Positions 41,157-57,090 of a DNA stretch of 64,000 nucleotides are shown piece after piece. Source of the stretch: Candidatus Bathyarchaeota archaeon. GTDB taxonomy: Archaea > Thermoproteota > Bathyarchaeia > Bathyarchaeales > Bathycorpusculaceae. Positions within the stretch are counted from its first letter, which is position 1, and every line of letters starts with the position of its first letter. The notes under the pieces were generated by a model, which did no database searches, was not told the DNA's origin, and was given only the letters and a program-made list of their open reading frames with translations. The stretch lies in assembly GCA_963733095.1 (NCBI GenBank), contig CAVTBV010000012.1:192001-256000 (forward strand). Reading direction: 5' to 3'. A program made the position numbers and the translations under genes.

Positions 41157-41602
41157 ACTGCTCTGCCGTCGTGGAGTTTTGGGTTTCCATAACCGTTCGC
41201 GGGCAATCGGCTTGTTGCCGTTTCTGCTCATCCAGCATTGCCGCGATTTGCTTTTAGAGGGCCCTCAGAAACTCCGACGTCTTTCAGAGCAAAATAAGCT
41301 GAAACTGTATAGAAGAGGATTCTGACTTTGTTAACCTGAAGATACTTGTCGATAAAATAGCGGGGGTTGGTTTAATCTACGCATCAAAAAGTTACTGCCC
41401 ACCATCCAAGAGCAAAACAACCATGTTCAAGTGATCCTCAAGCAACAAAATTAGATCTTGGAGCGTAGCCACGATATTGCTACATCGTGTGTTTAATCAA
41501 GAGCATGCCTACAAGTGTTCCAGCTTTGGAACAACCCGTTGATTAACTGTTCCCTGAATAGAACTATAAGTTAACTTCGTTACTAATTATAACAGGAAGT
41601 CC

Positions 41603-42610
41603 TTGACTTTGATGAAAAAACCAACAAGCACTATCCTAATTCTGCTTTCACTTATAATTTTAGGGACTAATTGCCTTGAACCTGTTTGTGCGCAATCAAC
41701 TAAACCCTCAGAACCAAAGTTTTCTATACAATTCCCAAATGACAGCTCAATACAGATAGTTATAGAAAATCAAGCATTCACTAGCAGTAGCTCTGTTAAC
41801 TCAATAGTTTACTATTATAGAGTCAAAGACCATAACTCATACCAATGGATACGAATGGGTGATTATCAGCTTCAATCTGACTCACAAACTACTCTTATCA
41901 CAATACCACCATACCCATGCGACCTTAGAGATTACCTTTTTCGTCCATCCATGAATAATCCTCTTAACAATAGTACTTTGCTCGATTTTCAAGTTCAAGC
42001 AATAACCGGTTACTATGCTATAACTCAAAAGCCAGGCTACATGCCAGGTATTCCACCTGTAGGACCTGGGGATGGTTATACAGAGATTACTTTTAATGAT
42101 ACAGAATCAAGCGACTGGAGCAACCCAATAACTGTTAACATAGTTGACAAAATTACGTTATCACCAAGTCAAATCTCGTCACTTAATCCAACACCCGGTC
42201 CGACTTCGTTCCAGTTTAATGTTTCAGTTGAAGACAAAACCTACCCGGTTATCGCTGATAGCAACTCAACCGTTACTGATTTAACGTTTAATCCTGCCAC
42301 AAAAGAGCTAAACTTCAAAGCAAACGGACAAACTGGAACAACAGGGTACTGCAGGATCACTATCCCAGCTACCCTTGTAGAGGGAGAACTATCAATCTAC
42401 AAAGATGAAACATTACTGGTAAAAGATGCAGATTACACTCAATCTAACGATGGAACAAACAATATTCTACAAATAAACTACAGTCACAGCACTCATAATT
42501 TCAAGATTGTTGGCACACAAGCAATCCCAGAGCTCCCCATCTTAGGAATCTTGCCTTTGTTTGTAATCATGTCCTTGATAACAACCAAAGTTCTAAGGAG
42601 AAGAATGTGA
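41603..42610 (+). CDS. Surface protein with PEF-CTERM-like sorting tail
   Basis: Signal peptide; IPELP, TM helix, then RRR. Confidence 0.75.
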   Translation: MTLMKKPTSTILILLSLIILGTNCLEPVCAQSTKPSEPKFSIQFPNDSSIQIVIENQAFTSSSSVNSIVYYYRVKDHNSYQWIRMGDYQLQSDSQTTLITIPPYPCDLRDYLFRPSMNNPLNNSTLLDFQVQAITGYYAITQKPGYMPGIPPVGPGDGYTEITFNDTESSDWSNPITVNIVDKITLSPSQISSLNPTPGPTSFQFNVSVEDKTYPVIADSNSTVTDLTFNPATKELNFKANGQTGTTGYCRITIPATLVEGELSIYKDETLLVKDADYTQSNDGTNNILQINYSHSTHNFKIVGTQAIPELPILGILPLFVIMSLITTKVLRRRM

Positions 42611-43224
42611 CTAAGATGGACAAAATCAGGAAAGCTTTCACATTATTCCTAATCCTTATTATCGCTATGTTAAGTCTAACCTTCCTAACTGTTAAGGCAG
42701 ATTCAAATCAGCCAATCACTTTCTCTTCGGGACTTACCCTATATTCACCAATAAATACAACATACAATTCTAACGTTGTAGAATGCAACGGTACGTTCAA
42801 TTGGCCAAAGCCTTCCCAAGTCTCCTTAAATTACAGTATTGACGGCGAAGACCAAGGTGCCTTACTTTGGAGCCTTGATGTGAATTCCATTTCTATCCCA
42901 GAATATTCTACGATAGCTGGGTCATTTCAGTTACCCCAACTGCCAAATGGGCCACATCAATTAAGCGTTGGAATTGACGAAGAACTCTATAATAACACTG
43001 GTTCAGCGCACGAATTAATTAACCAAACCACTTGGGTTAATACAGTCTATTTTACAATAAGTGCAAATCAACCCACGCCAACCCCAACTCCTACTGTTCC
43101 AGAACTAACTTATTGCACACTTCCAAGTGTAGTCATTTTTGGAATCATAACCGCATTATCCTTAGTTTTCAAAAAAGTAGGTCATCCTTTTGAAGGTCAA
43201 GATGCGTGCGCCGATGGCGCTTAA
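42607..43224 (+). CDS. Surface protein with PT linker and PEF-CTERM-like tail
   Basis: Signal peptide; SPINTTY, YSIDG, PTPTPTPTVPEL, then TM. Confidence 0.75.
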   Translation: MTKMDKIRKAFTLFLILIIAMLSLTFLTVKADSNQPITFSSGLTLYSPINTTYNSNVVECNGTFNWPKPSQVSLNYSIDGEDQGALLWSLDVNSISIPEYSTIAGSFQLPQLPNGPHQLSVGIDEELYNNTGSAHELINQTTWVNTVYFTISANQPTPTPTPTVPELTYCTLPSVVIFGIITALSLVFKKVGHPFEGQDACADGA

Positions 43225-43780: not shown

Positions 43781-46700
43781 CTAACCTTCTTCCATTCTCT
43801 TGATAATTTTAGTAGTTTCCAAGCTCACGGTAACTACTTTTTGTATTAATTCAATAACATATCCTTTGTAGTCTTCAAAACTGTAATTGTTGAAGTTTTT
43901 ACGAAGAGTCTCGCTCTTAGGAGTTTTCTCCTTATATTGGTCAAGAATCCATTCAACAGCTGTTCGGTTTCTAATTTTGTAAGCCCAAGTTTGTTTAGGT
44001 ATGCCTTTCAAGGTAGTTATGTCATCTATTGCTATTTCACCCTTATTTCTGTTTGCCAAGAGTCTGGGTTTATTGTTTTGGATATTTTTTGTTTCTTTGT
44101 CAATTCTTTCAAGCGGATAGATAGGGGCGTTTTCAAAATCGATATGAAGGTTAATCAATTGTTGACCCCAATTTTCCCATTTCCAAAAGTCTTTCATAAG
44201 GGGAATTCTTGGCAATTGCCTTTTCAAGTCAGCATCGTATTTTTGACAGTACTTAGGCGAATGAAGAATTGCGTAAACATAATTAAAAATTGAGTCACTA
44301 CTGATTTCATCGTCCTTGTATTGTTCTCTAAAAACTCTTATCGCCCATTCTGTAACGTTCTTGCTCCATTTTTTACCATTGTTAAAGAAATAAGGTACTG
44401 CCTGAGTGTTCTCAACGAGGTCTTTGCTAAAAAGACGATTTGATATAAGCACTGAGAAGGGCGTCGATGAACCAACACCTGAGAAACAAATTACCTTGTT
44501 ATTTCTGTTTAAATCATCCCCGAAAATTTTGTAATGGTTTCTAGTCAGAAAGTCCGATAAATCTTTGTCGGAATAATACAATTTCTTAACATACGGGCGG
44601 TAGTTAAATTCAATTATCGATTTTCCGTCAAAATTAAGGCTAACTCTGCGAGGAATTTTATCCTTAAGCGCTCTGCTCCATTGAATATCATATTTTAGAG
44701 CATTGCCTAAATTCTCTGGTTTAACATCTCTCAATCGTTTGAGTTGCGAATTGTATGATTCTACAAAATATTGAATTTTGTCAGCAATGTTTGACTCGTC
44801 AAAATCAAAAACCCATTCATCCCTATTTGTAGATACTCCAATGGTGTAAAAAGTGAAAATTGACAAGTCATTATCTTTTTCAGGGACTAACGGAAGCAAA
44901 TCATCAAAGTCATTATCCTGAATATTTAGCCAGTTCCCTTTCTTGTCGGGCGTTATATGAACAAACGGAACATTTTCAACTTTATTACTTGCAAACCATC
45001 TCAGCTTCTCTTCCCTTCGCTGCTCATCCTCTAATGCAAAATATTGAATCATGCAAGGTTTTTTTAACGACTCTTTGCGAACAAGAAACATTATAGCAAT
45101 GCCTAATTGTATGCCAAAAACATTATGGACAGTGCCTGACAGTTTTGGGTTTTCACGAATATCACTTTTTGTATCAATGATATATTGCATAATCAAATTC
45201 ATTTGCAATGTGCTTTCTAAAGCCATCATATGTATAGCTATCAATAAATGACCTGTTTGTTATGAAAGCGATAATTCCATTATTGCCAATTCGGTCAGAT
45301 GCCCAACGATAGAACCTTGCATAAGGGTCATAAACTTTAGTTTTCGTTGCTCGGCTGTCTTTGACATAAGTTTCTTTTATTCTTTTATCTATAAACGGGT
45401 ATTTACGGTTTGGATTATTTTCGTTAACCACGGATTGGTTAGCGTTGTAGGGGGGGTTACCTATTATCACTGAAATCTTTTTCTTATTTTGTCTTTTAAT
45501 TCGCTCAATGTTTTCTTCTCCAATATTATACAAGCTCACCTGCTTGTTTTTGAAGTGAAAACCTGTATTGTCAAGCGTATCGACAAAGCAAATATTCTCA
45601 AACGGTTCATATTTTTGAGTTTTTTGCTTATAGGTAAATTCGATATTAAGATTGGCTATATAATAAGGAAGTATTTCAACTTCATTGCAATGAATCTCGT
45701 TTTTATACTTGTATTCTAAAGCCGCTGTTGGTATTTGTTCAATTAATTCAGTGATGAAAGTGCCTGTTCCCGTTGCGGGGTCAAGTATCTCGACGTTGGA
45801 ATCGGATAATACTCTTCCGAAGTGTGTACAGAGAAGGTGGTCTGCAGTCCTAATCATAAACTGCACAATTTCATTAGGCGTGTATATGATGCCTAGGCGG
45901 TCAGCTGCTTTGGGGTTGTATGTCTTGTAAAATAATTCATATAGAAGTTTTAAGAATTTTTGCTTTTCATGATGGTCTTCAATATTTGAAGCTGCTGCCT
46001 TTATCGCAAGGTAGTAATGGTCAATAAGTCCTAAGGTATTTTTCTTTATTTTTCCAAAGAAGAACGTGTCTGAGACTTTTTCGAGTTCTTTGGCTATTGT
46101 GTTTTCTTTGTGAAATTGAGATTCATTAAAAATAGTAATGAAGATTTCTTCTGTGAGAATGTGCTGGATAAGCATTTCCCTAACATCTGAACAAGTGATT
46201 TTTGGATTAATCGTTAGTTGACAGAGTGCAAGCAGGTCATCCCTTGCTTTCTTAAAGACTGGATTCTTTTTCGCTTCAGAGTCAATTAATTCTCTGAGGG
46301 CGTCCAAGATAGGCGGCAAATCTTCTTTGAATTTTTCTATGGCTCTATGGAAGTCGGCAATCTCGGGGCGTTCGTAATCAACAAAGCGTTGGAGAATCTG
46401 GTCTAACTTAGCTGGGTCTTTCATTGAAACGCGATTTCTTTCAAAACCCTGCTGGATTAGTACAATAGTCTGTGAATCTTCGAAGATAATGTTTGAGGTC
46501 GGGTATCCTTTCCCAATCTTCTTTTCAATTTCTTTGTCTAAATCGTCATATTCATCTTTGCTTTCCCAATAGCCTACATCTAAGCGCAATGCATCTTTGA
46601 CTGTTCCATCTGGTGTAACTGTATTTCCTTTTTTTGACTTGTAGTCAATTTCGGGTATCAACAAGAGATTTTTCGATTTGCAGTAATAATTAAGGAGATT

Positions 46701-46820
46701 CGCAAATTCTGAACGCAGAGACATTTCTCTCTTACTGCCGCTATACTGTTTGACCTTATCAACGGCGTTATAATATTCTTCAATTAGATGCATGGTCATC
46801 GGCATCAGACTGCTTGGCAA
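43781..46820 (-). pseudogene. Type ISP/IIG-like restriction-modification enzyme split by a +1 frameshift
   Basis: PDG...ESK nuclease-like motif, YTPNEIV, ILDPATGTG and GNPPY in 45174-46820; Type ISP C-terminal-like GVSTNRDEW, YRPY, YVYAILHSP in 43781-45244; removing one base near 45186 fuses the frames. Confidence 0.85.
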
Positions 46821-46915
46821 TTATGTTGTGTTAGCTTTTAAGCTTTAACTTGAAACCGACTAAGACTTTGGCAAAATTTTTTAAAGAAGTCAACCAATTT
46901 TAGAGACGAATAGCT

Positions 46916-47179
46916 ATGTTGAGTGAAAGAGAAGCAAGATGCCCAGAATGCGGCTCTCCATTGGTTGTTTCAGTTGAGAAAAATAAGCGAACGGGTAAAT
47001 TACAAATAAGATTTTTCTGCGATGGAGATTATGATGATAAGTTCGATTTTGTCATACTTACGGAATTAAAAAACGAGGACTTAGATTCGCTCCTTCGAAA
47101 GAAGGGAAAGGTCGTATCGCAGTCTGTGGGCTTAAAGCTTCTTGATAGAAAAAGCGACCCTGAAATTGAACTGGCTTAA
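46916..47179 (+). CDS. Small CPxCG zinc-ribbon protein
   Basis: RCPECGSPL. Confidence 0.6.
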   Translation: MLSEREARCPECGSPLVVSVEKNKRTGKLQIRFFCDGDYDDKFDFVILTELKNEDLDSLLRKKGKVVSQSVGLKLLDRKSDPEIELA

Positions 47180-47333
47180 CCCCGCATGGTGACTGATTCG
47201 TCATTGTAGAGTTGCTTTTTTCCCTTTGTTGTCTGAGAGAAGCATATTTGCATTTTCCAGCTTACGGTTGACATTGGCGTTGCAATTAAAGTATTAAATA
47301 GGTAGAACTGTGATACCAGCCTATTAGGTCTGA

Positions 47334-48098
47334 TTGATGAGCGACGCTTCCAGCCCGCTTTCTGTTGTGGGCGTAATTTCAGAACCAGTAAAAGCTTTGA
47401 TTGTTTCAATAAGAAAACACAGGGAAAAGGAGCTTATTCAAAGCAGGTTTGTGAACGCCTTGGAAAGCGAAGCTTCTGCTTACTTAGCGGCAATGAACAA
47501 AATGTCGGCGTATGGAAATGAGCGAATTACGCCTAAGCTCTTGGAAATAAAGTCAATTCCAACAAAGAGACAGATAACTGAGGTAATGATAATGGCATCG
47601 GAAATACCCTTGTTTTGTAAGGAACTCCTGATTGCCTTTATCAATTTAGCAAAGGCGTGTAGCGAAATCTCCGAAAATGAAGCCTTCATGAAATCACTTC
47701 AGCAAATCCCTGAGCAATTCGATTTCATCAAGCGAATGGCAGCCATTTATGTAAAAGACAATACGGCAGCCATAAACGGGGCATACTTTCGTTATTTCAA
47801 AATCTACGGAAAACCAGTCTCAAGTCTCGAGCTATATTCGCAGGAGTCCGCCAAAATCGAAGAAATCAGGAAATCACTGGTCTTAATCAAGAAGTGGGGA
47901 GCGTTGGCAAGGAAAAATAGAGTTCGTCTGAGCAGAAAAATTGGTTTGCGATTCCTTAGGAACTTAGAGACGCTTGGAAAGATAACGGTATGTGTGAAGA
48001 TAGAAGCCTATAGCTATGTTGATTTGAATGATTATTTGCCTCCTGCTCTTGAGCCGCTACTATCTCTCGTTGATGGAATCCGCTATGGAATCAGCTAA
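47334..48098 (+). CDS. Hypothetical protein
   Basis: 254-aa ORF with no recognised motif. Confidence 0.55.
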   Translation: MMSDASSPLSVVGVISEPVKALIVSIRKHREKELIQSRFVNALESEASAYLAAMNKMSAYGNERITPKLLEIKSIPTKRQITEVMIMASEIPLFCKELLIAFINLAKACSEISENEAFMKSLQQIPEQFDFIKRMAAIYVKDNTAAINGAYFRYFKIYGKPVSSLELYSQESAKIEEIRKSLVLIKKWGALARKNRVRLSRKIGLRFLRNLETLGKITVCVKIEAYSYVDLNDYLPPALEPLLSLVDGIRYGIS

Positions 48099-48140
48099 CT
48101 GTCAACAGAGCTATCGTTGGTTTTTCTAAAAGTTGGGTCT

Positions 48141-48296
48141 GGGGATTAAAATTTAATCTTTCTCTCTCTCTCGAACTCAAACTCTACGACTACGACTGAC
48201 TAATTCTTTATCACTAACTAACACACACTCTTTCGTTAGCTCGTTAGTTCGTTCGTTAGTTAGCTCGTTCGCTCGCTAACAGACAAACAGACAAAC
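48141..48296 (+). repeat. Left terminal inverted repeat, microsatellite-rich
   Basis: GGGGATTAAAATTTAATCTTTCTCTCTCTCT...CTACGACTGACTA...CTTTATCACTAACTAACACACACTC...(TTAG/CTCG/TTCG)n...(CAGA/CAAA)n. Confidence 0.9.
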
Positions 48297-48308
48297 AAAA
48301 GAAACTTG

Positions 48309-49274
48309 TCAACGAGTTTTTCTCTTGAAAATTGAGACTGCTAATGTCAATACCGCCATTATGATTGCTATGACAATGATGAAAGGAAACTCTGGAACTG
48401 AAGAAATAGGTGTTGGCAAAGGTGTTGACGTAAAAATAGATGCTTGACTCATTTGAGGAAAATGGTCTATGTTAGTCCCGTTTATAACGTAAGGTGTGTT
48501 TCCTATTCCCGAACTATCAACCATAGTAGCATTAGGGTATTTTGATTGGTAGTCACTCCAATAGTTGCCAACCTTGCCGTTATCCCAAGTGTTAACAGAA
48601 TCCGAATCGACTTCTGCTCCATGGTCATTGTTTATGAAGTTATTATCATAGATAGAGTTGCTTGAAGAAGTTTCTAAAATAATCCCTGCACTATAATAGC
48701 CCCAACCATTCGAATTGTCGGTTAAGTAGTTCTGAACAATCGAGTTATGATGGCTTTCTGACAGTAATATGCCAAACATACCACTCTTAATAGTATTCCT
48801 GACAATCGTTACTGAACTGCTATTCTCAATCAAAATTCCACCGATCATTCCAAAGGGCGTGACGGCACTTGTTATAGTTGTATTTGTAATTTCTATATCA
48901 GATGTATCATTTAAGACAATAATAATTGACCCTGTGTTTGTAATTGATAAGTTTTGAACTGTAACGTTTGTCACTGAAAGCATGGAAATCTGTCCGTTAG
49001 TAAGAATATGACTGTCACCGTCAATTATTATGTTACTTTTTTGAACTGTAAATACAGTTGTGTCCATGTCACTTGTGAAAGTATAGATGTTACCTGTTTG
49101 CTTAATTAGAGGTGTTGAGGGACTTACGTTTCCATCTGCATTTATTATAAAAAAGCTTTGAGTTTGAGCGTTTGTAGGTTTAACTACCAGCAAGGTCAAA
49201 CATGATGTAGCGATAATGAGAATTAGGAATAATACGAAAGTCTGGCTGATTCTACTCTTGCTTATTTTTTGCAT
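48309..49274 (-). CDS. NosD/CASH beta-helix surface protein with PEF-CTERM-like tail (element cargo)
   Basis: Signal peptide; GILLSESHHNSIVQN repeats; GNYWSDY...GIGNTPY; VPEFP, TM, KRK. Confidence 0.85.
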   Translation of the reverse strand: MQKISKSRISQTFVLFLILIIATSCLTLLVVKPTNAQTQSFFIINADGNVSPSTPLIKQTGNIYTFTSDMDTTVFTVQKSNIIIDGDSHILTNGQISMLSVTNVTVQNLSITNTGSIIIVLNDTSDIEITNTTITSAVTPFGMIGGILIENSSSVTIVRNTIKSGMFGILLSESHHNSIVQNYLTDNSNGWGYYSAGIILETSSSNSIYDNNFINNDHGAEVDSDSVNTWDNGKVGNYWSDYQSKYPNATMVDSSGIGNTPYVINGTNIDHFPQMSQASIFTSTPLPTPISSVPEFPFIIVIAIIMAVLTLAVSIFKRKTR

Positions 49275-49387
49275 TGTCTACCTTCATCTAAACAATTAAC
49301 AGAGGCAACGGCTTATAGTTCTATTCAAAGAACAGACAAATAGTGGTTTGTTCCAAAATGGAACAGTCTTACAACAAAGTTTCTTGA

Positions 49388-50446
49388 CTAACTCGACTTA
49401 TATTGGATTTGACTGATTATTCTTGGTACCCATTCTTTCTTTTCGTTTCTCAGATACTTCGCAAACGACAGAGCCTCTTCGCTAATCAACGTATCAATCG
49501 TTTGTCTTTTTCCAACTTTAATTCGTTCAACGTTAACCATTCGGTCAAACAAGGCGTTCAAATCTTCAGCTAAACTGTCAGTCTCATACTCTTTCAAGTG
49601 AATTTTCTTACCCATCTTGAGGTGCATCATGAAATCTGTGACAAGAACAAAGTCTTTCTTTCTGAGTTTTTGACAGCGTTCAATCAGGAAGCCATCAATC
49701 AGATAGCGGTAGAGTTCTTGGAAATCGCATACTAAACTTGGTTTACCATGTTGGACGGAATGCAAGAATCCTAAATACGGTTCTAATTTTGCTTTCAATA
49801 ATGCTTTGTGTACTCTGCACTCTAAAACGTAATAGGCAAAGTTGAAAACATTATTCAATCCATCATAAGCCTTGTATGTTTCTCTGCTTTCAGGTCTAAT
49901 GCTTTCAGGGAAAAGTTGGAAAATCTTCGAGAAATAATCTTGTGCGCTTCTTCCTTCAATTCCTGTGAGTTTTTGCCTTGTCTGTTTCAAATTAGAAAAT
50001 TCCAATCTTGTAATTTCGCTTAGGTAAAACGAGTTTTTAGAATAGTCGAGTCCATACTTTTTTAGAACAGCGATTTCTCCTTTGATTTTGGCAATGACAA
50101 ACTGTTTAGCTATGTCGATGCATTTTTCTTCATCAAGAACTGCTTGATATTGGCTTAGTCTTGTTTCAACGTGAGAATCATCTTCAACATTTTTGAGCAA
50201 GGCTACAACTCGGTTTCTTCTTGTCACTATGTATGTGTCGATATTCCAGAGTGCAAGATCAACCAACGCGTCAACGCTGACGTAGGAACCGCTTTTGAGG
50301 ACAGCTTCGCCTATTTCCTTTTTGAAATGTGGGTAGCGTTCTGTTTTTCCAGTTTTTTCTCTAACTTCAAAACATCCTTCAGCTCTACCAAGATAAGAAC
50401 CATAGTTTGATAGTTCAACCTTCAAAGTTTTAGAACCCTGAACCAT
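49388..50446 (-). CDS. cas1: Solo Cas1 endonuclease/integrase (casposase-like)
   Basis: YGSYLG N-terminal domain, RLSQY, GIEGRSAQDYF, NNVFNFAY, GFLH, SLVCDFQELYR; E-H-E catalytic residues present. Confidence 0.93.
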   Translation of the reverse strand: MVQGSKTLKVELSNYGSYLGRAEGCFEVREKTGKTERYPHFKKEIGEAVLKSGSYVSVDALVDLALWNIDTYIVTRRNRVVALLKNVEDDSHVETRLSQYQAVLDEEKCIDIAKQFVIAKIKGEIAVLKKYGLDYSKNSFYLSEITRLEFSNLKQTRQKLTGIEGRSAQDYFSKIFQLFPESIRPESRETYKAYDGLNNVFNFAYYVLECRVHKALLKAKLEPYLGFLHSVQHGKPSLVCDFQELYRYLIDGFLIERCQKLRKKDFVLVTDFMMHLKMGKKIHLKEYETDSLAEDLNALFDRMVNVERIKVGKRQTIDTLISEEALSFAKYLRNEKKEWVPRIISQIQYKSS

Positions 50447-51102
50447 TAAGCATTCCTCTTTTCTACTTCTTTTATAAACCTGTTAAGAATATTCACATAT
50501 CTGCTAGAGTTTTCTCTTTCTGCAATGAACTGCTTTCTAAGGTTTCTTAGCATGCCAACTTGTGACTGTCCAACATATTTTTCTTTTAATTTGGTAGCCT
50601 TTGCTTTAAGCACTGATTCTTTTTGAGTACTCTGTTTTTTTATTTGCTCAAGAAGAGCTTCTGCGAATGAGATATTGAATATTCTGTTAAAGTAATTTTC
50701 ATCGAAGAATTTTGTGTTAATCTTATGCCTCATTCTTAAGAGTGTATCCGCAAAAATAATATCGATATGAGTTTCTGACAAAAATGAAGGAGGCAAATCT
50801 TCGTAACCTTTGCTTAACTCTTTTTCCATCGCCTTGATTAATTCGTCCTTTTGCAGGTCTCCGTCAATTATGAGAATCGCTAATCCTTTAGCTGATAATT
50901 CAGGTTTAGCGGTTCCTCTTGCATCTTGTTGCCCATTCTTTCTGGCACCACATCGCGACTTCAAGATGCCCTCTTTTTGCATTTTTTTTATGTGACGATA
51001 AACAGTTGCATAATTTGTCCCATTCAATGATTTTTCTAGGCTATACATGCTTTTTTTAGAGCTTAGAAGCGAAATGAGGATTTCTTTATCGATTCTATTC
51101 AT
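50446..51102 (-). CDS. Winged-HTH transcriptional regulator
   Basis: SMYSLEKSL..TNYATVYRHIKKMQKEGIL...LSAKGL; stop overlaps the cas1 start (TAATG). Confidence 0.75.
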   Translation of the reverse strand: MNRIDKEILISLLSSKKSMYSLEKSLNGTNYATVYRHIKKMQKEGILKSRCGARKNGQQDARGTAKPELSAKGLAILIIDGDLQKDELIKAMEKELSKGYEDLPPSFLSETHIDIIFADTLLRMRHKINTKFFDENYFNRIFNISFAEALLEQIKKQSTQKESVLKAKATKLKEKYVGQSQVGMLRNLRKQFIAERENSSRYVNILNRFIKEVEKRNA

Positions 51103-51115
51103 TTTTTACGCCTTT

Positions 51116-51151
51116 TTGAATATATTCAATTCACGACATGAATATATTCAT
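51116..51151. promoter_or_regulatory. Twin 14-bp palindromic operators between divergent transcription units
   Basis: TTGAATATATTCAA at 51116-51129 and ATGAATATATTCAT at 51138-51151, 22 bp apart. Confidence 0.75.
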
Positions 51152-51196
51152 AAGATGTATATATGCTTTGTTACAAAGCTAAGTCTGTGAAAAAAC

Positions 51197-51343
51197 ATGA
51201 AAACAATCCATCAAACCTTCACAGATGAAGAGTTCGAAAAGTTACATTCTGCGAAGGGACAAAAAAGTTGGCATGACTTCGTTATGAAGTTAGCCAAAAC
51301 AAAATACAATAGTTTTTTGCCTAAAAAGGAGAATAAAAAATGA
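51197..51343 (+). CDS. 48-aa ribbon-helix-helix-like protein (below ORF track cutoff)
   Basis: MKTIHQTFTDEEFEKLHSAKGQKSWHDFVMKLAK...; stop overlaps the next ATG (ATGA). Confidence 0.7.
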   Translation: MKTIHQTFTDEEFEKLHSAKGQKSWHDFVMKLAKTKYNSFLPKKENKK

Positions 51344-51720
51344 ATGAATACAGAAAACGCTCGGGTTCAACACTAAGGGAATACAACATTAACGTTGTTG
51401 TGGAAAAACTGAGACATGGCATGAACGAAACTGACGTATTAAATGAATTAGCAATGGCGTTCTGTCCCGATACAAGAATAGATTATTTGAACACAGCAAA
51501 AGAAAAATTGAAAATGGAAACTCAAAACTCGACCAAATCTGAATCCCCTAACAATATGGAACCTGAATCATCTGAATCATTCATGGAATACGCTAAGAAG
51601 CATCCGCACACAACAAGCACATGTAAAAATTGCGGTAAACCTACGCCTGAAAATACAACTTTCTGCTCTAAAGCATGCGTAGAACAATACAAAGCTAAAG
51701 CGGAGACTGACAAAACATGA
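51340..51720 (+). CDS. Hypothetical protein with C-terminal Zn finger
   Basis: CKNCGKP...FCSKAC; GGAG upstream. Confidence 0.75.
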   Translation: MNEYRKRSGSTLREYNINVVVEKLRHGMNETDVLNELAMAFCPDTRIDYLNTAKEKLKMETQNSTKSESPNNMEPESSESFMEYAKKHPHTTSTCKNCGKPTPENTTFCSKACVEQYKAKAETDKT

Positions 51721-52301
51721 CGGTGTATTCAAGTTTACCCAAAATAGGAATTATAGATTTCTTAGCTAATATGAGCAAAAAGAGGTTCAATTTCAGAGTT
51801 ACAACAAGCCGTTTTACATTCTTTGCAATGTTAAGCAGAAGCCAAAAAATAGAAGGCATGACAAGCAGAGTTTACGACGAAAACGGAAAACCAACTAACA
51901 AACATTATGTATTTTTTGATATTGAAGGTATATCTTTAGAAGAAGCTAAAAAAAAACTTAAAAAAATTCAAAAAAAATACGGCTTAAGCAATATTTACTT
52001 AACAACAGACAACAACGGCAAAACTTATCGAGGATGGTGCTGGAGCATTGTTACTTTTTCAACTTACCGTAAAATTCTCATTGACAGCGAGAACATTATA
52101 GACAATGGGTTTGATTTTTACACAAATAAAAGGAAAGAAGCCACTTTGAGACTTAGCCAAAAAGAAGGCAGACCTTTCCAAACTTGTACCGATGTTATTG
52201 AATCGTTTTTTGTTCCCTTTCCAACTGGGAAGATACGACGAATTATCTACTATACTGGATGCGAAAAGAAAGGTACAACACTTAATTTAGGAGTTGATTA
52301 G
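51717..52301 (+). CDS. Putative archaeo-eukaryotic primase (AEP)-fold protein
   Basis: VFFDIE (motif I-like); YLTTDNNGKTYRGW (motif II-like, R in place of H); IID...TLRLSQK (motif III-like). Confidence 0.5.
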   Translation: MTVYSSLPKIGIIDFLANMSKKRFNFRVTTSRFTFFAMLSRSQKIEGMTSRVYDENGKPTNKHYVFFDIEGISLEEAKKKLKKIQKKYGLSNIYLTTDNNGKTYRGWCWSIVTFSTYRKILIDSENIIDNGFDFYTNKRKEATLRLSQKEGRPFQTCTDVIESFFVPFPTGKIRRIIYYTGCEKKGTTLNLGVD

Positions 52302-52710
52302 TACGGATAAATTTCCTGAGGCTTTTAGACGATTCAAGCAAGATGTTCCTACACGACAAATTAAGACTTTTAGACAGCTAACTTTAGCTTTCGGTTCTTG
52401 GGCTGGTGAAAAATGGAGAGGCACAAACAGACAGATGGATGCTTTGGCTGTTCAAGCAAAAAGATTAGGGATTCCACTTGAGGATTGCCGTATGAAACGG
52501 CAACAGGTTAGAGCTATATTTTGTAGGGCTTCGCGACAGACTGGAATTCAAGGGAGAGAGAAGTTTTCAAGAAGTTATAGTAATTTTCACCAGTGGCAAA
52601 GCAAGACTGCAAGAACAACAGCATACGAGAGAAGAATCATTAATTACATTAGGAATCATCCGAATGCAAGTTTAGCGGAGGCGCGAGGTCATAGAGCAAA
52701 GAGGTCTTAA
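52294..52710 (+). CDS. Small highly basic protein, putative nucleic-acid binder
   Basis: Arg/Lys-rich; ends YIRNHPNASLAEARGHRAKRS; overlaps the previous stop; GGAG upstream. Confidence 0.7.
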   Translation: MISTDKFPEAFRRFKQDVPTRQIKTFRQLTLAFGSWAGEKWRGTNRQMDALAVQAKRLGIPLEDCRMKRQQVRAIFCRASRQTGIQGREKFSRSYSNFHQWQSKTARTTAYERRIINYIRNHPNASLAEARGHRAKRS

Positions 52711-52794
52711 CAAGACCTCAATTTTTTTTGTGCAATATTTGGTCATCACAATTAGCAAAACTATTTGTATTTTTGCTGTTCATACATCAATAAC

Positions 52795-53715
52795 ATGGTT
52801 GAATTAAGAAACGATATCTTCATTAATTTAAAGGATAACACAAGGCAAACAACTATTGAAAAATATTATGTTGATGAAGCATTCGAAGCAATGGGACACT
52901 TATTTGACAACAAGGACAAATTCGTTGATTACCTGAACTCCATCAAGAACCCTGCTGATGCAGAGCTATTTGTCAGGATGAGTTCGTTTTACTTAATCGC
53001 TAAGAAATATGAAAAGTCTATTCCCGCTAAACTGATTATGATTATTTCTATTATTGAGAGAATATCTAACAAAAACAGAGATTTCATTACAATGGATAAT
53101 TGGATAATTAATCAAGATAATAAAATTAGAGAGTATCTTTCTAAGTACGAAGAAGTTAGCATGGAGCAGTTCAAAGAAGTTTTTGAATTGCTCAGGGAAG
53201 ATTACTTTAAAATTTTTGGTTCTCAAAGAAATTTTTTCGCCTTTTTTAAGACGGTTTCTTTAGATGACAAGATTAAAATCATAAAATCTTTTAAGACTCA
53301 AAGAGTAAAAATTGTTGAAGGCGTTTTTGCTAAGTATTTTGAGGAACGGCTTAAACCATTTACAACGATAGATGAATTTGAAATTGCAGAAAAAAGAAAA
53401 CTTAAGCATGCACAAATGCCAGAATGTTACCACTGGAAATCATGTTATCTTGGCTATGGTCAGTGTTCTGATAAAATTAGTTGTTGGTTACATGATAATC
53501 CTGATGAGGTGGACTCGTATCTTAAGAAAACTATCAGATTAATTTATCAGATGAGAAGTAATTTTGTCCATAATGCTAAGTTATTCCTCTTGAATGAAAA
53601 AGACTCAATTTTTCTCGCCGATAGTATTGATGGTGATACCGTTTTTATAGAACTTACCGTAGAAGATTTTCAGGATATTTTCGAGAGAACATTTAAAAAG
53701 TATTTCCATACCTAA
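52795..53715 (+). CDS. HEPN-like (RxxxxH) protein, putative RNase toxin or defence cargo
   Basis: IISIIE N-terminal helix and YQMRSNFVHNA. Confidence 0.65.
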   Translation: MVELRNDIFINLKDNTRQTTIEKYYVDEAFEAMGHLFDNKDKFVDYLNSIKNPADAELFVRMSSFYLIAKKYEKSIPAKLIMIISIIERISNKNRDFITMDNWIINQDNKIREYLSKYEEVSMEQFKEVFELLREDYFKIFGSQRNFFAFFKTVSLDDKIKIIKSFKTQRVKIVEGVFAKYFEERLKPFTTIDEFEIAEKRKLKHAQMPECYHWKSCYLGYGQCSDKISCWLHDNPDEVDSYLKKTIRLIYQMRSNFVHNAKLFLLNEKDSIFLADSIDGDTVFIELTVEDFQDIFERTFKKYFHT

Positions 53716-53740
53716 TGCCAACCGCAACAAATCCCATCTT

Positions 53741-53929
53741 TCTGTCTGTTTGTTGTCCGAGCGAGCTAACGAGCTAACTAAAGCGAGCTAACGAACGAAT
53801 GAGCTAACTAACGAGCGAGTGTGTGTTAGTTAGTGATAAAGGTCGTAATGGTAAGGTAGTCAGTCGTAGCGTGGTCGTCGCAGTCGTAGTTTGAGAAGTA
53901 GAGAGAGAGAAAGATTAAAATTTAATCCC
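53741..53929 (-). repeat. Right terminal inverted repeat
   Basis: Reverse complement GGGATTAAATTTTAATCTTTCTCTCTCTCT...CTACGACTGACTA...CTTTATCACTAACTAACACACACTC...tetramer tract; same block order as the left arm. Confidence 0.9.
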
Positions 53930-53974
53930 ATCAAATCTATCGTAATTTTTGCGACCATCTTTTCAGCTATTACG

Positions 53975-54700
53975 TCACCTATCGCCTAACTCGAAAGCGT
54001 CAAATCCATTAGAGTTCCCCCAATCAACTCTATTAGCTCCGTGAAAAGTGCGTCGAGCATTTCCAACATTATTCCTTGCTTTCTCAGCTTCTACCTCTAT
54101 CAGCATCCTCTCTTTAAGAGCATCAGTCCTAATTCGTTCCCTTTCTCTGAGTTTTGCAAGTTCATCATTTTTCACCAACCTTGCAGGTTTTTCACTTACT
54201 TTTACTGGTTCATTTTGGGCTTGAGTTTTCCCTTTGAAAAAGCGTTGCGTCTCACAATTAGCGTAAATTGTAGGTTGAGCTTGGAAACAAGTCTCGCATG
54301 CTTTAGGATTATAAAGTCCTTTACTTCGTGGACAGAGGGGAATCTTGGTTTTTTGAGGAAGTTTCCATAAATGAATTTTACATTTATTACACTCTTCCTT
54401 AGCTACCAACAAACGATGCCGCCCATAAGATTCATAAACGCAATACAACTTTTTGTTTGAACCACAAAGGAGAAATTCGCAATCTGATTGAGAGTTTTCC
54501 TGTTTTTCATCATCTTGAGGAATCCCTCGATAGCGGTTGAAAATAACGTGTAAGCCCTCTTTTCGACTCATAAGAGAGTTTTCCTTAATAACTTGGTCAA
54601 GAAGTTCAAAATCGCTCGGATAAATGTCTGAGTTGAGTTTTACCGCTTTTTCGTTACCCATTTTTTTCACCTCAAAAAAAAGAAATGGGTTATTAGGCAA
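53975..54700 (-). CDS. Hypothetical Cys-rich protein with possible N-terminal RHH-like segment
   Basis: CNKC, CETC and other Cys residues; start may be the ATG of MGNEK after GAGGTG. Confidence 0.65.
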   Translation of the reverse strand: MPNNPFLFFEVKKMGNEKAVKLNSDIYPSDFELLDQVIKENSLMSRKEGLHVIFNRYRGIPQDDEKQENSQSDCEFLLCGSNKKLYCVYESYGRHRLLVAKEECNKCKIHLWKLPQKTKIPLCPRSKGLYNPKACETCFQAQPTIYANCETQRFFKGKTQAQNEPVKVSEKPARLVKNDELAKLRERERIRTDALKERMLIEVEAEKARNNVGNARRTFHGANRVDWGNSNGFDAFELGDR

Positions 54701-56234
54701 CCTCAGCCATTACGGCTTCTTCTTGCGCGATTACTTTAAGGTCTACAGCTGTTTTGCTTTGGCTTATTAGCTCGTTGTATCGCTTCGCGTATAGAGGGTT
54801 CACAAATCGATGTATCCAATCCTTCCATGGTTCAAAAGTTTTTTCGCCTAAGATTACTGAGCGAAGTTTGTCACCTAAAGTTCCATGGTAGAAGTCGCGA
54901 ATTGTTGTGGGGTCTGTTCCGCATTGCTCTGCACAGTCGTCTAAGCTCAAGCCATGAAGCCCTGCAAGGCTTACGAAAGTGTGTTTCATTGTTGTGTGTG
55001 TTGTTGTCATTTTTCCCTCGGTTAGCCATTGTTTCTTATAACCCTGTGTCCCTTTCAGGTTGTTGCTTACGGCTTTTAATCGATAGACATGCCCATTAGC
55101 TGAGACTTTTTCTCCTTTTGCAAGTTCCTGTCCCTTCTGCGCCGTCTTAAAGCGCCAGATTCCCGCTCGATAACCCGCGGCTTTGATACTACTGCTATAG
55201 CTCTCATAGTTGTGACTGTCTGATTCCCATCGTTTGAACCAAGCGCCCTTGATGTCAAAGTCGTCTACGTATCTTTTGAAAAATGCCATAGTTTCAGCAA
55301 CGAAGTATCGTTTCACTTTGCCGCCTATCTTGGATTCCTCGACTTTTGGCTCAAACATCGCTATTGCGTTTAAATCCCAAAAGGGTTGGCAAAGATAGCC
55401 GTTTGGCGTTTTTTTACCCATATACAGTTGACTGCTAATTCTACCGCCGCCTTCAAAACCGAGCCTATGAAGAACTAGTGTGTCTACCTCGTTGATGTTT
55501 TCAACAAAGAGTTTGAGTTCGTTTTCTTGGAGGTAGTCGTCTTTTTTTCCGCCAATGTTTTTCTTTCCTGATGTATCCCACTCATCGCCCTCAAGGAACT
55601 GGAAATGTCTTTTTGATAGTGGTGAGTCTTCTATTTGCAATGCCACAAATTGCATTATGCATCTTAGTTTTGATAACGGGTCGAATTTGATTTTTCCCTG
55701 CTCGTTGTAGAAGTGCGCGTCTTTTTTGGCTTCCTGAAAATCTTCTAAGGAAAATAGTGCGGGGTCTTTTTGATTGAATTTTGCATAAAGGTATTTTCCC
55801 ATTGCCTCGACCATTTTGCCTTGGTCTGACCATTCGCCTGTTATGCGGTTTTGGTAGTGTTTCGCCAAGTATCGGTGACATAGTGTTTTGTTGTATTCGG
55901 AGACTTTGGCGTTTGCAAGGGTTTTGGAGTTTGTTGGAGAGCCGTTTGGAAAATCCTCATAGATTAGGTACAGGAAGCTTCTTTTTGAGATGTTAAGGTA
56001 GTCTGCGTATTGCATACCGTTCTTTATGGTTACTTCAATGTCATGATGGAGTGGGCTTTGGTGGAATTCACCGCGAATTATTCCTTTAAAGGGTTTTAGT
56101 TTCCATGGGTTTGTTTTTGGGTTTGCTGGTTCTGGTTTATCTTTGATTAAGTGCTGAAACAATCGGTTGATATCGGCGTCTGTTGTTATTTCGCCTCGCC
56201 TTTGTTTTGGCGAAGCGAGTATTCTATTGCTCAA
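54693..56234 (-). CDS. Divergent tyrosine recombinase/integrase
   Basis: YLQENEL...LGFEGGGRISS (R), FEPK (K), THTTMKHTFVS, QCGTDPTTIRDFY (Y). Confidence 0.7.
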   Translation of the reverse strand: MSNRILASPKQRRGEITTDADINRLFQHLIKDKPEPANPKTNPWKLKPFKGIIRGEFHQSPLHHDIEVTIKNGMQYADYLNISKRSFLYLIYEDFPNGSPTNSKTLANAKVSEYNKTLCHRYLAKHYQNRITGEWSDQGKMVEAMGKYLYAKFNQKDPALFSLEDFQEAKKDAHFYNEQGKIKFDPLSKLRCIMQFVALQIEDSPLSKRHFQFLEGDEWDTSGKKNIGGKKDDYLQENELKLFVENINEVDTLVLHRLGFEGGGRISSQLYMGKKTPNGYLCQPFWDLNAIAMFEPKVEESKIGGKVKRYFVAETMAFFKRYVDDFDIKGAWFKRWESDSHNYESYSSSIKAAGYRAGIWRFKTAQKGQELAKGEKVSANGHVYRLKAVSNNLKGTQGYKKQWLTEGKMTTTHTTMKHTFVSLAGLHGLSLDDCAEQCGTDPTTIRDFYHGTLGDKLRSVILGEKTFEPWKDWIHRFVNPLYAKRYNELISQSKTAVDLKVIAQEEAVMAEVA

Positions 56235-56277
56235 AGTTATTACTTTCTGAGGAATTGGATAGTGAAATAAGCCTCTA

Positions 56278-56952
56278 CTAAAACAGGCTTACGGCACTTT
56301 TGCTATCCAATTCAGCCGCATTCGAGCTGTCCTCGGTTTTGGCTGACTCCGAATTTGTTGAGGTTGGGGTAGGGAAGACAGCGGGTCTTTGTTCCCTCAA
56401 CTTGGCGAGTGCATCTGCACCAATTTTTGAAGCTAAGTAAGCTATTTGAAGAGGTGTTTGAACTGCCCGCATCTCATTGGCAATGGTGTATTCATTATAG
56501 CCTTTAGCGGTACGTGCTTTCTCAAGAATCCTATCAACTTCTTGGATTGCTTTTGATGGCTCAGTCAATTCTAATGCTTCGAATGTTCTGCGTCTATCCG
56601 CGTCGTCTTTCAGTTTTTGCCACATGTAGGTTACTTGGTAGGCGCTGTATCCACCAGCTTTATTGCCGAGCATGGTTTTCACAGTTGTCAAGTCTCTTTC
56701 AAAAAGGTAATTGCTCGTCGCTTGTATCATCCTATCAATGTCTGACGTGTTTCTGTATTTTGTAAGCAGGTCGGCTATTGATTCATCTATTAAAGAGGTC
56801 ATAGTGACCGTCCTCTCGTTTGAAAGTTCTGAGAGGCTGTCAAGATTTAGTTTTAGAAGGTTAACGCTAGTTTTTTCACGTTTGCCTTCAATGCTTTTAA
56901 TGTCGGATATTATATTAGCCATATTTTGCCCGACCAAGCGGTATGATAACAA
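56278..56952 (-). CDS. RHH-domain regulator-like protein
   Basis: KREKTSVNLLKLNLDSLSELS...MTSLIDESIADLLTKY. Confidence 0.6.
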   Translation of the reverse strand: MLSYRLVGQNMANIISDIKSIEGKREKTSVNLLKLNLDSLSELSNERTVTMTSLIDESIADLLTKYRNTSDIDRMIQATSNYLFERDLTTVKTMLGNKAGGYSAYQVTYMWQKLKDDADRRRTFEALELTEPSKAIQEVDRILEKARTAKGYNEYTIANEMRAVQTPLQIAYLASKIGADALAKLREQRPAVFPTPTSTNSESAKTEDSSNAAELDSKSAVSLF

Positions 56953-56980
56953 AAAATACCTTATAAGTTTTGTGTTTTAC

Positions 56981-57090
56981 TCAGAAATTAGCATTTTTAT
57001 TGTAATAATTACAAAATTATTGTAATTTCTGAAATTTTTATCATTTCCCCTCACCACTAAAAATTAAAAAAGGGGTCATATTATTGTAAT
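56981..57090. promoter_or_regulatory. TTATTGTAAT repeats and an inverted repeat upstream of the integrase operon
   Basis: TTATTGTAAT at 56997, 57017 and 57081; TCAGAAATTA...TAATTTCTGA inverted pair. Confidence 0.55.

Follow-up and report, generated by a model that had tools for sequence, protein, structure and literature searches.

Casposons are defined by the pairing of a Cas1 integrase with a family B DNA polymerase (PolB) and it is from them that the CRISPR adaptation module is presumed to descend; to our knowledge, PolB is present in all casposons that have been described. A transposon-like locus that encodes Cas1 and no PolB raises the question of which enzyme would make its DNA. Here, we address this question for a window of 64,000 nt from Candidatus Bathyarchaeota archaeon (assembly GCA_963733095.1, contig CAVTBV010000012.1, positions 192,001–256,000 of the forward strand; all coordinates below are those of the window), in which the initial annotation had read the open reading frame at 51717–52301 as a minimal primase/polymerase-like protein from the superfamily of archaeo-eukaryotic primases (AEP), paired with Cas1.

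The gene (51717–52301, plus strand) encodes 194 aa that would form a stand-alone AEP catalytic domain, to judge from its motifs, alignments, the Pfam matches of its relatives and a structural model, and it carries no fused helicase, clamp or Zn finger. On the 5' side, its ATG and the stop of the upstream Zn-ribbon gene overlap by 4 nt; on the 3' side, 8 nt are common to its own stop and the TTG start of the gene that follows. All of the segments singled out earlier, namely VFFDIE, the beta-turn-beta segment YLTTDNNGKTYRGW, IID and TLRLSQK, were found in this frame. VFFDIE (residues 65–70) contains motif I, D68-x-E70, while YLTTDNNGKTYRGW (residues 94–107) contains motif II, T103-Y-R105, from which the canonical His of the sxH pattern is absent. 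Motif III is D129 (I128-D129), within IID (residues 127–129), and TLRLSQK (residues 143–149) forms part of a wider motif, T143-L-R145...K149..R152. In the AF2 model (pLDDT 92, pTM 0.83), the strand 59–70 closes with motif I (V65-F-F-D68-I-E70), and the region of YLTTDNNGKTYRGW is predicted as a strand (93–97), a turn and a second strand (103–113).

The family to which this protein belongs comprises at least 151 cluster representatives. Across 32 close homologues D68, D98, R105, D123, D129, R145 and K149 never vary, and E70 hardly does. In a wider alignment of 93 rows, which reaches down to 20% identity, position 68 is D in 88 rows and E in five, position 70 is D in 53 and E in 37, and position 129 is D in 87, C in four and E in two; the acidic residues, whose conservation had been proposed as a check on the AEP reading, are kept in the close and the wider set alike. 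R145 is kept in 92 of the 93 rows and K149 in 91. Position 105 is R in 62 rows and H in 21, in agreement with the earlier remark that Arg stands here where His is usual, and motif II of distant relatives reads HYHAY or NYH, with more distant Cas1-linked homologues taking the form DxD ... NYH. Given this conservation, the listed motifs exceed chance. A rolling-circle (HUH) Rep was also considered, because H63 (84/93 rows) and Y178 (90/93 rows) are nearly invariant, and was rejected, there being no His-hydrophobic-His motif and Y178 lying in a beta-strand.

The relatives and the model together support the assignment of the protein to the AEP superfamily, as a very small member. The Pfam model PF24387, 'AEP-like (archaeo-eukaryotic primase 1D-like)', matches the relative P0171 with 34 bits (cut-off 27), and RepB_primase (PF16793) matches the relative P0186 with 26.5 bits (cut-off 24.3); both models describe small AEP domains, as the protein studied here appears to be. 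At E<=0.01, nine of the 93 relatives match PF24387, and one of the 93 matches RepB_primase. Both relatives are tied to the family of the protein by phmmer (E 5.6e-5 and 3.0e-4; library size 1.8 billion), and hhalign aligned the close family to 16 distant members, P0171 and P0186 included, over 152 columns with a probability of 99.8% and an E of 2.9e-29, the reversed control giving 0.3%. In the ESM Atlas, PF24387 is assigned to 13 of the 30 named language-model neighbours (score 0.95), and the summary given there lists its members as mostly bacterial and phage proteins. The AEP-like character first proposed is supported by the conserved motifs, by relatives above Pfam AEP cut-offs and by the hhalign link, and neither of the outcomes that the initial annotation had set against itself, a fold other than AEP or a loss of the acidic residues, was found.

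Direct matches to the protein are scarcer. No Pfam, PHROGs or NCBIfam model matched it, and its close family reaches neither PF24387 nor PF16793. Foldseek with either model found nothing in the PDB at E<=0.001, nor did a Foldseek search of BFVD at the same threshold, and when the 93-row profile was compared by hhalign with 30 PriS sequences from archaea of the phylum, the probability was 0.07%. PF24387 matched nothing above its cut-off in the same genome (one match at E 0.56 lies on another contig, C1, away from this gene), and at E<=0.01 it was found in none of 301 genomes of the phylum. PHROGs assigned members of the 93-row set to two unannotated families, one member each; tblastn of 50,697 phage records yielded no match, and a scan of viral contigs yielded no relative. 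Fused forms of 341–2000 aa were sought and none was found, which counts as weak evidence; two long multi-stretch matches, P0095 and P0152, proved to be unrelated repeat proteins.

Two alternatives concern the nature of the protein itself. If it were a generic alpha/beta sandwich (MecA/YpbH C-terminal-like, ACT-like or origin-binding-domain-like), its likeness to the AEP motifs would be a matter of chance. A PDB sequence search with the protein and the 93-row profile returned insignificant rows only, and MecA, at E 0.2–0.36, was the sole sequence match of the profile, which would fit such a fold; however, the rows of alternative folds align only 64–85 residues against 105–121 for AEPs, relatives exceed the curated cut-offs of the Pfam AEP models, and the alternation of His and Arg falls exactly at motif II. 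We give this alternative next to no credence. Only slightly more plausible, and still very improbable, is a catalytically dead AEP fold that would do no more than bind the element ends or the Cas1 complex. The replacement of His by Arg at motif II, in this protein as in 62 of 93 relatives, would be consistent with lost catalysis, as would the D-F-H in motif I of P0171, the relative that best matches Pfam. Yet metal ligands are usually the first residues to go in dead enzymes, and the three acidic positions are retained in 88–93 of the 93 rows. Moreover, in what Kazlauskas et al. 2018 (PMC5862659) set out on motif II, its His varies by AEP family, with Arg or Lys reported for the DR0530-like family and, for PolpTN2 and RepB', Gln.

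The gene lies within an element of 5.75 kb (48159–53912), inserted between the convergent genes 47334–48098 (plus strand) and 53975–54700 (minus strand), a setting at odds with insertion at promoters. Its inverted ends, of about 150–190 nt, are built of simple repeats and supported by the inverted pairs I2 (60 nt, 85%), I4 (42 nt, 88%) and I14. The left terminal inverted repeat (TIR; 48159–48309) begins TTT(CT)n and continues with other short tandem repeats, of which TRF reports the 8-nt units TCGTTAGC (5.4 copies) and AACAGACA (2.5 copies), and the right TIR (53727–53912) ends (GA)nAAA. Outside the TIRs lie two 15-bp target-site duplications, at 48144–48158 and 53913–53927, identical at 15 of 15 positions; in shuffled controls, the best direct repeat had a median score of 6 and a 95th percentile of 7–8. 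Among 30 other genomes of the genus, the left flank was found in one and the right flank in five, at 68–73% identity, and no clean empty site was recovered; there is no exact empty site to compare because the gene content between the flanks differs in the genome concerned (G417). In six sequencing runs, no more than 0.07 of the words sampled were present.

Within these boundaries, a Cas1-family integrase, a putative casposase of 352 aa, is encoded at 49388–50446 on the minus strand (Pfam Cas_Cas1 1.3e-47; TIGR00287 3.7e-46). The Cas1 pairing that had been claimed holds at the level of the locus, the Cas1 frame lying 1.27 kb from the AEP gene within the same TIR-bounded element. The best solved relative of this Cas1 is 6opm_A (4e-20). 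The element's Cas1 shares 27% identity with the CRISPR Cas1 of the host, and the alignment pairs their conserved E, H and D/E positions. The host protein belongs to a Cas6b-Cas1-Cas2-Cas4 operon on a contig other than that of the element; no cas2, cas4 or CRISPR was found in or beside the element, and none of its other six frames matched Cas2 or Cas4. The stop of a winged-HTH (wHTH) gene (50446–51102, minus strand, 218 aa) overlaps the Cas1 start. This protein has sub-threshold HTH matches only, for its counterpart in the related element L003 the HTH_5 match, at 6e-07, exceeds the cut-off, and that in L008 matches MarR at 4.4e-4; the wHTH gene adjoins Cas1 in five Cas1-bearing elements (that of the window, L003, L008, L009 and L020).

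On the plus strand, the AEP gene is translationally coupled to a preceding gene (51340–51720, 126 aa) for a Zn-ribbon protein of the DUF2116 treble-clef type (Pfam 2.5e-05, just under the cut-off). A CxxC-bearing gene stands 5' of the AEP gene in nine of 23 loci, and the upstream gene varies otherwise. The position directly downstream (52294–52710, plus strand) is conserved and encodes a protein of 138 aa of no known family, which follows the AEP gene in 24 of 26 public loci and is fused to it in frame in P0045 (276 aa). No Pfam family was found among 61 homologues of this partner and the ESM Atlas gave no usable match; complex prediction for the two proteins scored 0.00 in both runs, which were made without controls and speak neither for nor against binding. 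Two further genes complete the set: a cargo gene for a secreted or membrane-anchored right-handed beta-helix protein (NosD-like; 48309–49274, minus strand, 321 aa; Pfam Beta_helix 8.1e-18, NosD 1.8e-16), and one for a cargo or accessory protein (52765–53715, plus strand, 316 aa) that has no Pfam, PHROGs or NCBIfam match and for which tblastn returned nothing in the 26 public loci.

Seven related TIR-bounded elements of 3.6–12.6 kb were recognized (L003, L005, L008, L009, L020, L048 and L050). Cas1, wHTH, AEP and the 138-aa partner form a core common to six of them, the seventh, L005, being decayed and without Cas1. L020 is a contig of 9,161 nt with perfect TIRs at its two ends and may be an excised linear or circular copy. 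Five carry duplications of 13–16 bp of the same AT-rich target, identical at 15/15 (L003), 16/16 (L009), 14/14 (L008), 13/13 (L050) and 13/13 (L048) positions, as compared with a best of 6–8 in shuffled sequence. Co-occurrence with Cas1, which had been suggested as a further check, was seen at seven of nine loci with enough context, including loci whose AEP is only about 22–24% identical; the other two are L005 and L002, the latter with only one TIR found. The distribution is patchy, with five of 401 genomes of the phylum positive; the sample also included ten other genomes of the same genus, none of them positive. Bathyarchaeia are an uncultured and poorly annotated group, to which this family adds mobile elements.

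No polymerase family was found among the matches listed for the genes of the window element, none of the six elements checked has a frame longer than 364 aa, and the Pfam matches listed for 37 further element frames include no polymerase family either. Since the element lacks PolB and has a 15-bp target-site duplication, the AEP is the sole candidate for the DNA-synthesis enzyme of a casposon-like transposon. We think it probable, though well short of certain, that in this element the AEP and its partner form a DNA-synthesis module of its own, in place of PolB. Cas1, aided by the adjacent wHTH protein, would join the 3' ends of the element to the 15-bp AT-rich target and leave gaps of 15 nt. 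The AEP, working with the downstream 138-aa protein and in some lineages also with the upstream Zn-ribbon protein, would start and extend DNA on the element, with D68, E70 and D129 holding the metal and R105, R145 and K149 the nucleotide. It might copy the element from its repeat-rich ends, close the gaps from which the target-site duplication arises, or both; priming, gap filling and writing of the repeat termini, as initially suggested, would be candidate roles. Processive copying of 6–12 kb by an AEP of 190 aa is an unproven part of this scheme.

In one alternative, the AEP is an initiator only, laying down short primers at or near the element ends in the way that RepB' acts at ssi sites, for elongation by the host PolB or PolD; on this view the element is not self-synthesizing. 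The very small size of the protein and its lack of a processivity or helicase module would suit such a role, and host priming or host factors have already been assumed for family 2 and 3 casposons in the account of Krupovic et al. 2014 (PMC4046053). Many small AEPs of mobile elements, however, are described as combining primase and polymerase, examples being PolpTN2 (PMC5862659) and the CRISPR-associated Prim-Pols (CAPPs; PMC8211822), and the two activities are not separable from AEP sequence. We regard a primase-only role as unlikely. Less probable again is a role confined to repair after integration, in which the AEP would fill the pair of 15-nt gaps that Cas1 integration leaves, a task suggested for CAPPs at CRISPR repeats, and would have no part in copying the element. 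Some polymerase must fill the 15-bp duplication, and the proposal made for CAPPs, which are likewise AEPs linked to Cas1, lends the idea some substance (PMC8211822). For most transposons, though, host polymerases fill such gaps, and the AEP and partner genes persist beside a TIR at loci in which Cas1 was not detected (L002, L004 and L005, the last of them decayed), for which reason a replication module fits better than an integration accessory.

More tentatively, the elements may be a fifth, undescribed casposon family, whose members, from 3.6 kb upwards, would rank with the smallest on record. The hallmark PolB would have been exchanged for a two-gene minimal AEP primase-polymerase, initiating at telomere-like ends of (TC)n, (CCAA)n or (CCCAAA)n and maintaining them by slippage, and Cas1 would insert the element at a conserved AT-rich target of 13–16 bp; since these repeats lie on the 5' strand, the 3' ends are purine- or G-rich. 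Such a family would mean that the Cas1 integrase module is able to team up with replicases of unrelated kinds, and would provide a transposon-borne precedent for the Cas1-AEP partnership of CAPP-containing CRISPR systems. A lineage with Cas1, TIRs and a 15-bp duplication but a 190-aa AEP for PolB would widen the definition of casposons, and its core of Cas1, wHTH, AEP and 138-aa partner, in an element of as little as 3.6 kb, would offer a very small, tractable system for the coupling of Cas1-mediated integration to DNA synthesis. The AEP itself would be one of the smallest natural enzymes of its kind in which structure and function of the His-to-Arg variant of motif II could be studied. In the literature searched, coverage of which is partial, we found no description of a casposon or Cas1 transposon in which an AEP replaces PolB.

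As no family B polymerase gene lies inside, the window element is not a casposon as originally defined, and is best called a variant. In common with casposons of families 1–4, as characterized by Krupovic et al. 2014 and 2016 (PMC4046053, PMC4779613), it has Cas1 without cas2 or CRISPR, and its family shares with them TIRs, a recurrent target that is duplicated over about 15 bp (median 15 nt for casposons; PMC4046053), a patchy distribution in archaea and variable cargo between a conserved core. It differs in having an AEP and a small partner in place of PolB, and its family in its size range and bathyarchaeal hosts, in TIR tips made of simple repeats, and in an HTH that is a separate gene, whereas in casposons it is a domain of Cas1. 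CAPPs, as presented by Zabrady et al. 2021 (PMC8211822), are also AEP enzymes genetically linked to Cas1, with gap filling after Cas1 integration among the roles proposed for both; they are found in CRISPR-cas operons with Cas1-Cas2, in contrast to a transposon without cas2 or CRISPR, and the two links to Cas1 look like independent recruitments. A third comparison, which implies no sequence link, is with the DR0530-like family and the PrimPol-PV1 supergroup, also mobile-element-encoded and with the motif II His replaced in the treatment of PMC5862659; a conserved Arg that follows motif III there is termed 'motif IV', and R145 of the window AEP is, by order and spacing, a candidate for the same position.

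The open reading frame at positions 51717-52301 (plus strand) encodes a protein of 194 amino acids, which the initial annotation had read as a minimal protein from the superfamily of archaeo-eukaryotic primases (AEP), paired with Cas1. Every motif that it quoted is present in the frame, namely VFFDIE (residues 65-70), YLTTDNNGKTYRGW (residues 94-107), IID (residues 127-129) and TLRLSQK (residues 143-149), and the pairing also holds, as the ORF at 49388-50446 (minus strand) matches Pfam Cas_Cas1 (1.3e-47) and TIGR00287 (3.7e-46). The ATG of the AEP gene and the stop codon of the upstream gene (51340-51720) share a 4-nt overlap and the following gene (52294-52710) begins 8 nt before the AEP stop, so that the three genes look translationally coupled.

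A word-indexed search returned 43 homologues at E<=0.01 among 158 candidates, 54-96% identical to the window protein and all named 'hypothetical' with no other name, and when 1.84 billion cluster representatives were searched exhaustively with HMMER, 151 matched at an E-value of 1e-3 or lower and 76 at 1e-10 or lower. Two of the long, multi-stretch HMMER matches (P0095 and P0152) were rejected as relatives, being unrelated repeat proteins. Conservation was read from a close alignment of 32 homologues and from a broad one of 93 sequences, spanning down to 20% identity and made up of the window protein, seven close word-search homologues and 85 of the 150 listed HMMER representatives, with fragments, proteins that matched little of the query and long multi-stretch proteins omitted. 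The close alignment shows no variation at D68, D98, R105, D123, D129, R145 and K149, and next to none at E70. The broad alignment keeps positions 68 (D in 88, E in 5), 70 (D in 53, E in 37) and 129 (D in 87) mostly acidic, bearing out the expected conservation of the acidic residues, and retains R145 in 92 sequences, K149 in 91, Y178 in 90, R152 in 87 and H63 in 84. The remark that Arg stands where His is usual proved apt, since position 105 truly alternates between the two (R in 62, H in 21), and more distant family members read WDFD ... HYHAYCF ... hD ... TLRIS.K. The rival reading of a catalytically dead AEP, an improbable one, has the Arg of motif II for it and this acidic conservation against it; for Arg at motif II there is precedent in the DR0530-like family, to which the motif descriptions in PMC5862659 assign Arg or Lys at this position, with Gln in PolpTN2 and RepB'.

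Those descriptions (Kazlauskas et al. 2018, PMC5862659) give the superfamily motifs as hhhDhD/E, sxH and hD/E, and these are matched in order and on predicted strands in the window protein family, the window protein itself reading T103-Y-R105 at motif II, without the canonical His. The block R145/K149/R152 after motif III may be the counterpart of the Arg that the same descriptions call 'motif IV'. At E<=0.01 the Pfam family PF24387 ('AEP-like') is matched by nine of the 93 aligned members and RepB_primase by one. When 20 members were scanned singly PF24387 appeared in seven, where P0171 was the sole one to pass its curated cut-off (34.0 bits vs 27) and P0142 reached 26.0 bits; P0186 passed the cut-off of RepB_primase (26.5 vs 24.3). 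The close alignment is tied to these relatives by hhalign, which matched it to 16 distant members, P0171 and P0186 included, with a probability of 99.8% (E 2.9e-29, 152 columns; reversed control 0.3%) and set D68/E70 opposite DFD, R105 opposite His and D129 opposite hD.

The alternative that the protein is not an AEP draws on a series of direct searches: the window protein matched no model in Pfam, PHROGs or NCBIfam, nothing significant was found among PDB chains by sequence, and no match emerged when hhalign compared the family with 30 PriS sequences of the phylum. PF24387 itself gave nothing above cut-off in the same genome (a single match, E 0.56, on another contig) and none at E<=0.01 across 301 genomes of the phylum. 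The AlphaFold2 model, of pLDDT 67.9 on the close alignment, rose to pLDDT 92.0 and pTM 0.83 on the broad one, and its fold matches fall almost all in one superfamily, but each is weak and none reaches E<=0.001 in Foldseek searches of PDB and BFVD. Among 30 named ESM Atlas neighbours, 13 are clusters with PF24387 (score 0.95), with DUF1882 and the TOTE AEP domain ranking lower; we take DUF1882 to be the family of HP0184, the top fold match. Together, the strong chain of sequence matches through relatives, the motif logic with its His/Arg alternation and the fold matches make membership of the AEP superfamily very probable, and the AEP-like reading stands. The best three BFVD matches of the model, at E-values between 1.3e-3 and 4.7e-3 and a probability of 1.00, belong to archaeal filamentous viruses (two Sulfolobales Beppu filamentous viruses and Pyrobaculum filamentous virus 1); these uncharacterised proteins of 180-230 aa may be small AEPs that have gone unrecognised.

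The finding at 51717-52301 is real, and its context is more interesting than was initially stated. Inverted repeats at 48142-48309 and 53727-53929 (pairing over 60 nt with 85% identity and over 42 nt with 88%) frame the genes, an identical 15-mer lies in direct orientation at 48144-48158 and 53913-53927 (15/15), and the inverted ends start with TTT(CT)n immediately inside its copies, which defines an element of 5,754 bp (48159-53912) with a 15-bp target-site duplication. As this 15-mer is nearly palindromic it cannot alone separate direct from inverted repetition, a point settled by the related elements. Seven genes are carried: on one strand a NosD/beta-helix surface protein, Cas1 and a wHTH protein, the last ending in a stop that overlaps the start of Cas1; and, divergent from these, a Zn-ribbon (DUF2116) protein (51340-51720) and the AEP, followed by a 138-aa protein (52294-52710) and a 316-aa ORF (52765-53715). 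This last, at the right end, has a Cys/His-rich stretch, matched no family in Pfam, PHROGs or NCBIfam and was undetected by tblastn in 26 public loci. The element has no cas2, cas4 or CRISPR. The host's canonical adaptation operon, Cas6b-Cas1-Cas2-Cas4, lies on a separate contig (C1:181308-185165), so that a CRISPR system and a Cas1 transposon coexist in one genome; the two Cas1 proteins are only 27% identical. The best solved relative of the element Cas1 is 6opm_A (4e-20), ahead of 4n06 (3.2e-17); its database entry name is just Cas1, and we take it to be the Methanosarcina mazei casposase.

Several observations concern the surroundings. A stretch of about 100 nt upstream of the NosD-like cargo gene (49261-49365) recurs before a host surface-protein gene in the window (41515-41570) and on another contig of the genome, C2 (593-697 of locus L033; 90% over 105 nt), and the opening 72 nt of the cargo gene are similar to ORF 42607-43224; the cargo appears to have been taken from host paralogues or exchanged with them. 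At C2:56657-56705 (L033 1490-1530) a second AT-rich target word precedes a TTT(CT)n start resembling a terminal inverted repeat (TIR), 83% identical to the window left end over 52 nt. It has no inverted partner within the 20-kb stretch around it (about 10 kb each side), the genome holds no extra Cas1 or AEP, and the site may represent a lone TIR or what is left of another element. GC content falls to 35-41% around the element (about 43781-57000), against 44-49% elsewhere, and this stretch includes a 513-aa ORF without a family (54693-56234), conserved among different neighbours in G406, G414 and G417, three other genomes of the genus, where it is 65-73% identical. The low-GC stretch as a whole is probably a larger integrated element that took up the casposon-like one by insertion.

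Related AEP genes were found in 26 public loci, four from genomes titled Bathyarchaeota or Bathyarchaeia MAGs and 22 from metagenomes, and four loci besides that of the window genome came from searching 401 genomes of the phylum with a profile. Cas1 is present in 8 of the 26, most of whose contigs are just 1-4 kb, and in seven of the nine loci with enough context (the window, L002, L003, L005, L008, L009, L020, L048 and L050). Of the two without it, L005 has decayed, with an AEP reduced to residues 50-194 and a frame-broken partner gene, and L002 shows just one TIR. The TIR-bounded elements measure about 3.6 kb (L008; TIR 86 nt, 93%), 4.5 kb (L050; 72 nt, 94%), 4.5 kb (L005; 29 nt at 93%, 44 nt at 82%), 4.6 kb (L003; 126 nt, 98%), 8.2 kb (L009; 144 nt, 83%) and 12.6 kb (L048; 110 nt, 94%). 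In L020 (1-9161) a single element takes up the whole metagenome contig of 9,161 nt, which ends on both sides in perfect 123-nt inverted repeats (100%) without flanking DNA; this could be a linear form that was excised or is extrachromosomal, or else a product of assembly at repeats. Direct repeats lie outside the TIRs of L003 (15/15), L009 (16/16), L008 (14/14), L050 (13/13) and L048 (13/13), where 100 shuffles gave a median best score of 6 and a 95th percentile of 7-8; L005 has no TIR-flanking direct repeat above chance. The direct repeats of these five are not palindromes and are therefore duplications rather than part of the TIR, and as variants of one AT-rich word, A-T-T/A-A-A-A-A-T-T-T/A-A-A-T, they point to a conserved target preference. 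The AEPs of L048 and L050 are about 22-24% identical to that of the window, reading DxD ... NYH or GRH, and their Cas1 proteins 46-48%, a divergence implying that the Cas1-AEP-TIR association is old. Cargo varies, including NosD-like, McrB_N-like and Laminin_G_3 proteins and, in L048, a DNA methylase.

Short-period repeats build the inverted ends of all eight elements in differing sequences: (TC)n at the very tip of the window element, L003, L005, L008 and L009, in tracts that run to 4-5 units in the window element and to about 14 at the left end of L005, (CCAA)n in L048, (CCCAAA)n in L050 and 8-nt units in L020. Where the 5' tips are (TC)n, (CCAA)n or (CCCAAA)n, the 3' strands finish rich in purines or G, which recalls telomeric repeats to some extent. 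More speculatively, and in line with the initial annotation's idea that the protein could write the microsatellite termini, ends built of short-period repeats would permit primer realignment or slippage in end replication, a reading compatible with the data.

Directly after the AEP gene comes the 138-aa gene in 24 of the 26 public loci; in the other two the contig ends 26 and 311 nt past the AEP match. Its product, with 61 homologues of which not one has a Pfam family, shows conserved N-terminal (DKFPEAF...W..KW) and C-terminal segments; in P0045, a 276-aa relative, the AEP domain is fused in frame to the former. Invariant adjacency, overlapping start and stop and this natural fusion argue that the two proteins may act as one enzyme. 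The upstream gene is variable: of 23 loci compared, 9 have a CxxC-bearing protein ahead of the AEP. No family B DNA polymerase (PolB) accompanies them: six elements contain no ORF longer than 364 aa, the longest being of that length, and a Pfam scan of 37 other element ORFs gave no polymerase family among the 25 families listed, outside which 12 weaker families had one member each. Conserved catalytic positions, transposon anatomy, PolB absence and conserved linkage are each demonstrated here, superfamily membership is very probable, and we moderately favour a reading in which the AEP and its partner form a DNA-synthesis module that belongs to the element and takes the place of PolB. An active AEP would prime and extend DNA on the element ends and/or fill the 15-nt gaps left by Cas1, a role that would let the element do without PolB. 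Two narrower and less probable rivals are a primase-only AEP and a gap-filling-only AEP.

Without PolB, these elements depart from one defining casposon feature (Krupovic et al.) and share the other three, and they amount to a PolB-less, AEP-bearing casposon lineage in Bathyarchaeia. Full-text literature searches, within what was searchable, returned no description of a Cas1 transposon with an AEP replacing PolB; a passage in Koonin and Makarova (2022, PMC8730458) refers to Asgard archaea Cas1 homologues 'possibly associated with novel MGE'. Casposons have in common with these elements Cas1, TIRs and target-site duplication machinery, the duplication having a median of 15 nt (PMC4046053), but use a different replicase. 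CRISPR-associated Prim-Pols are likewise Cas1-linked AEPs, but they reside alongside Cas2 in CRISPR operons, and other structures are nearer fold matches of the window AEP.
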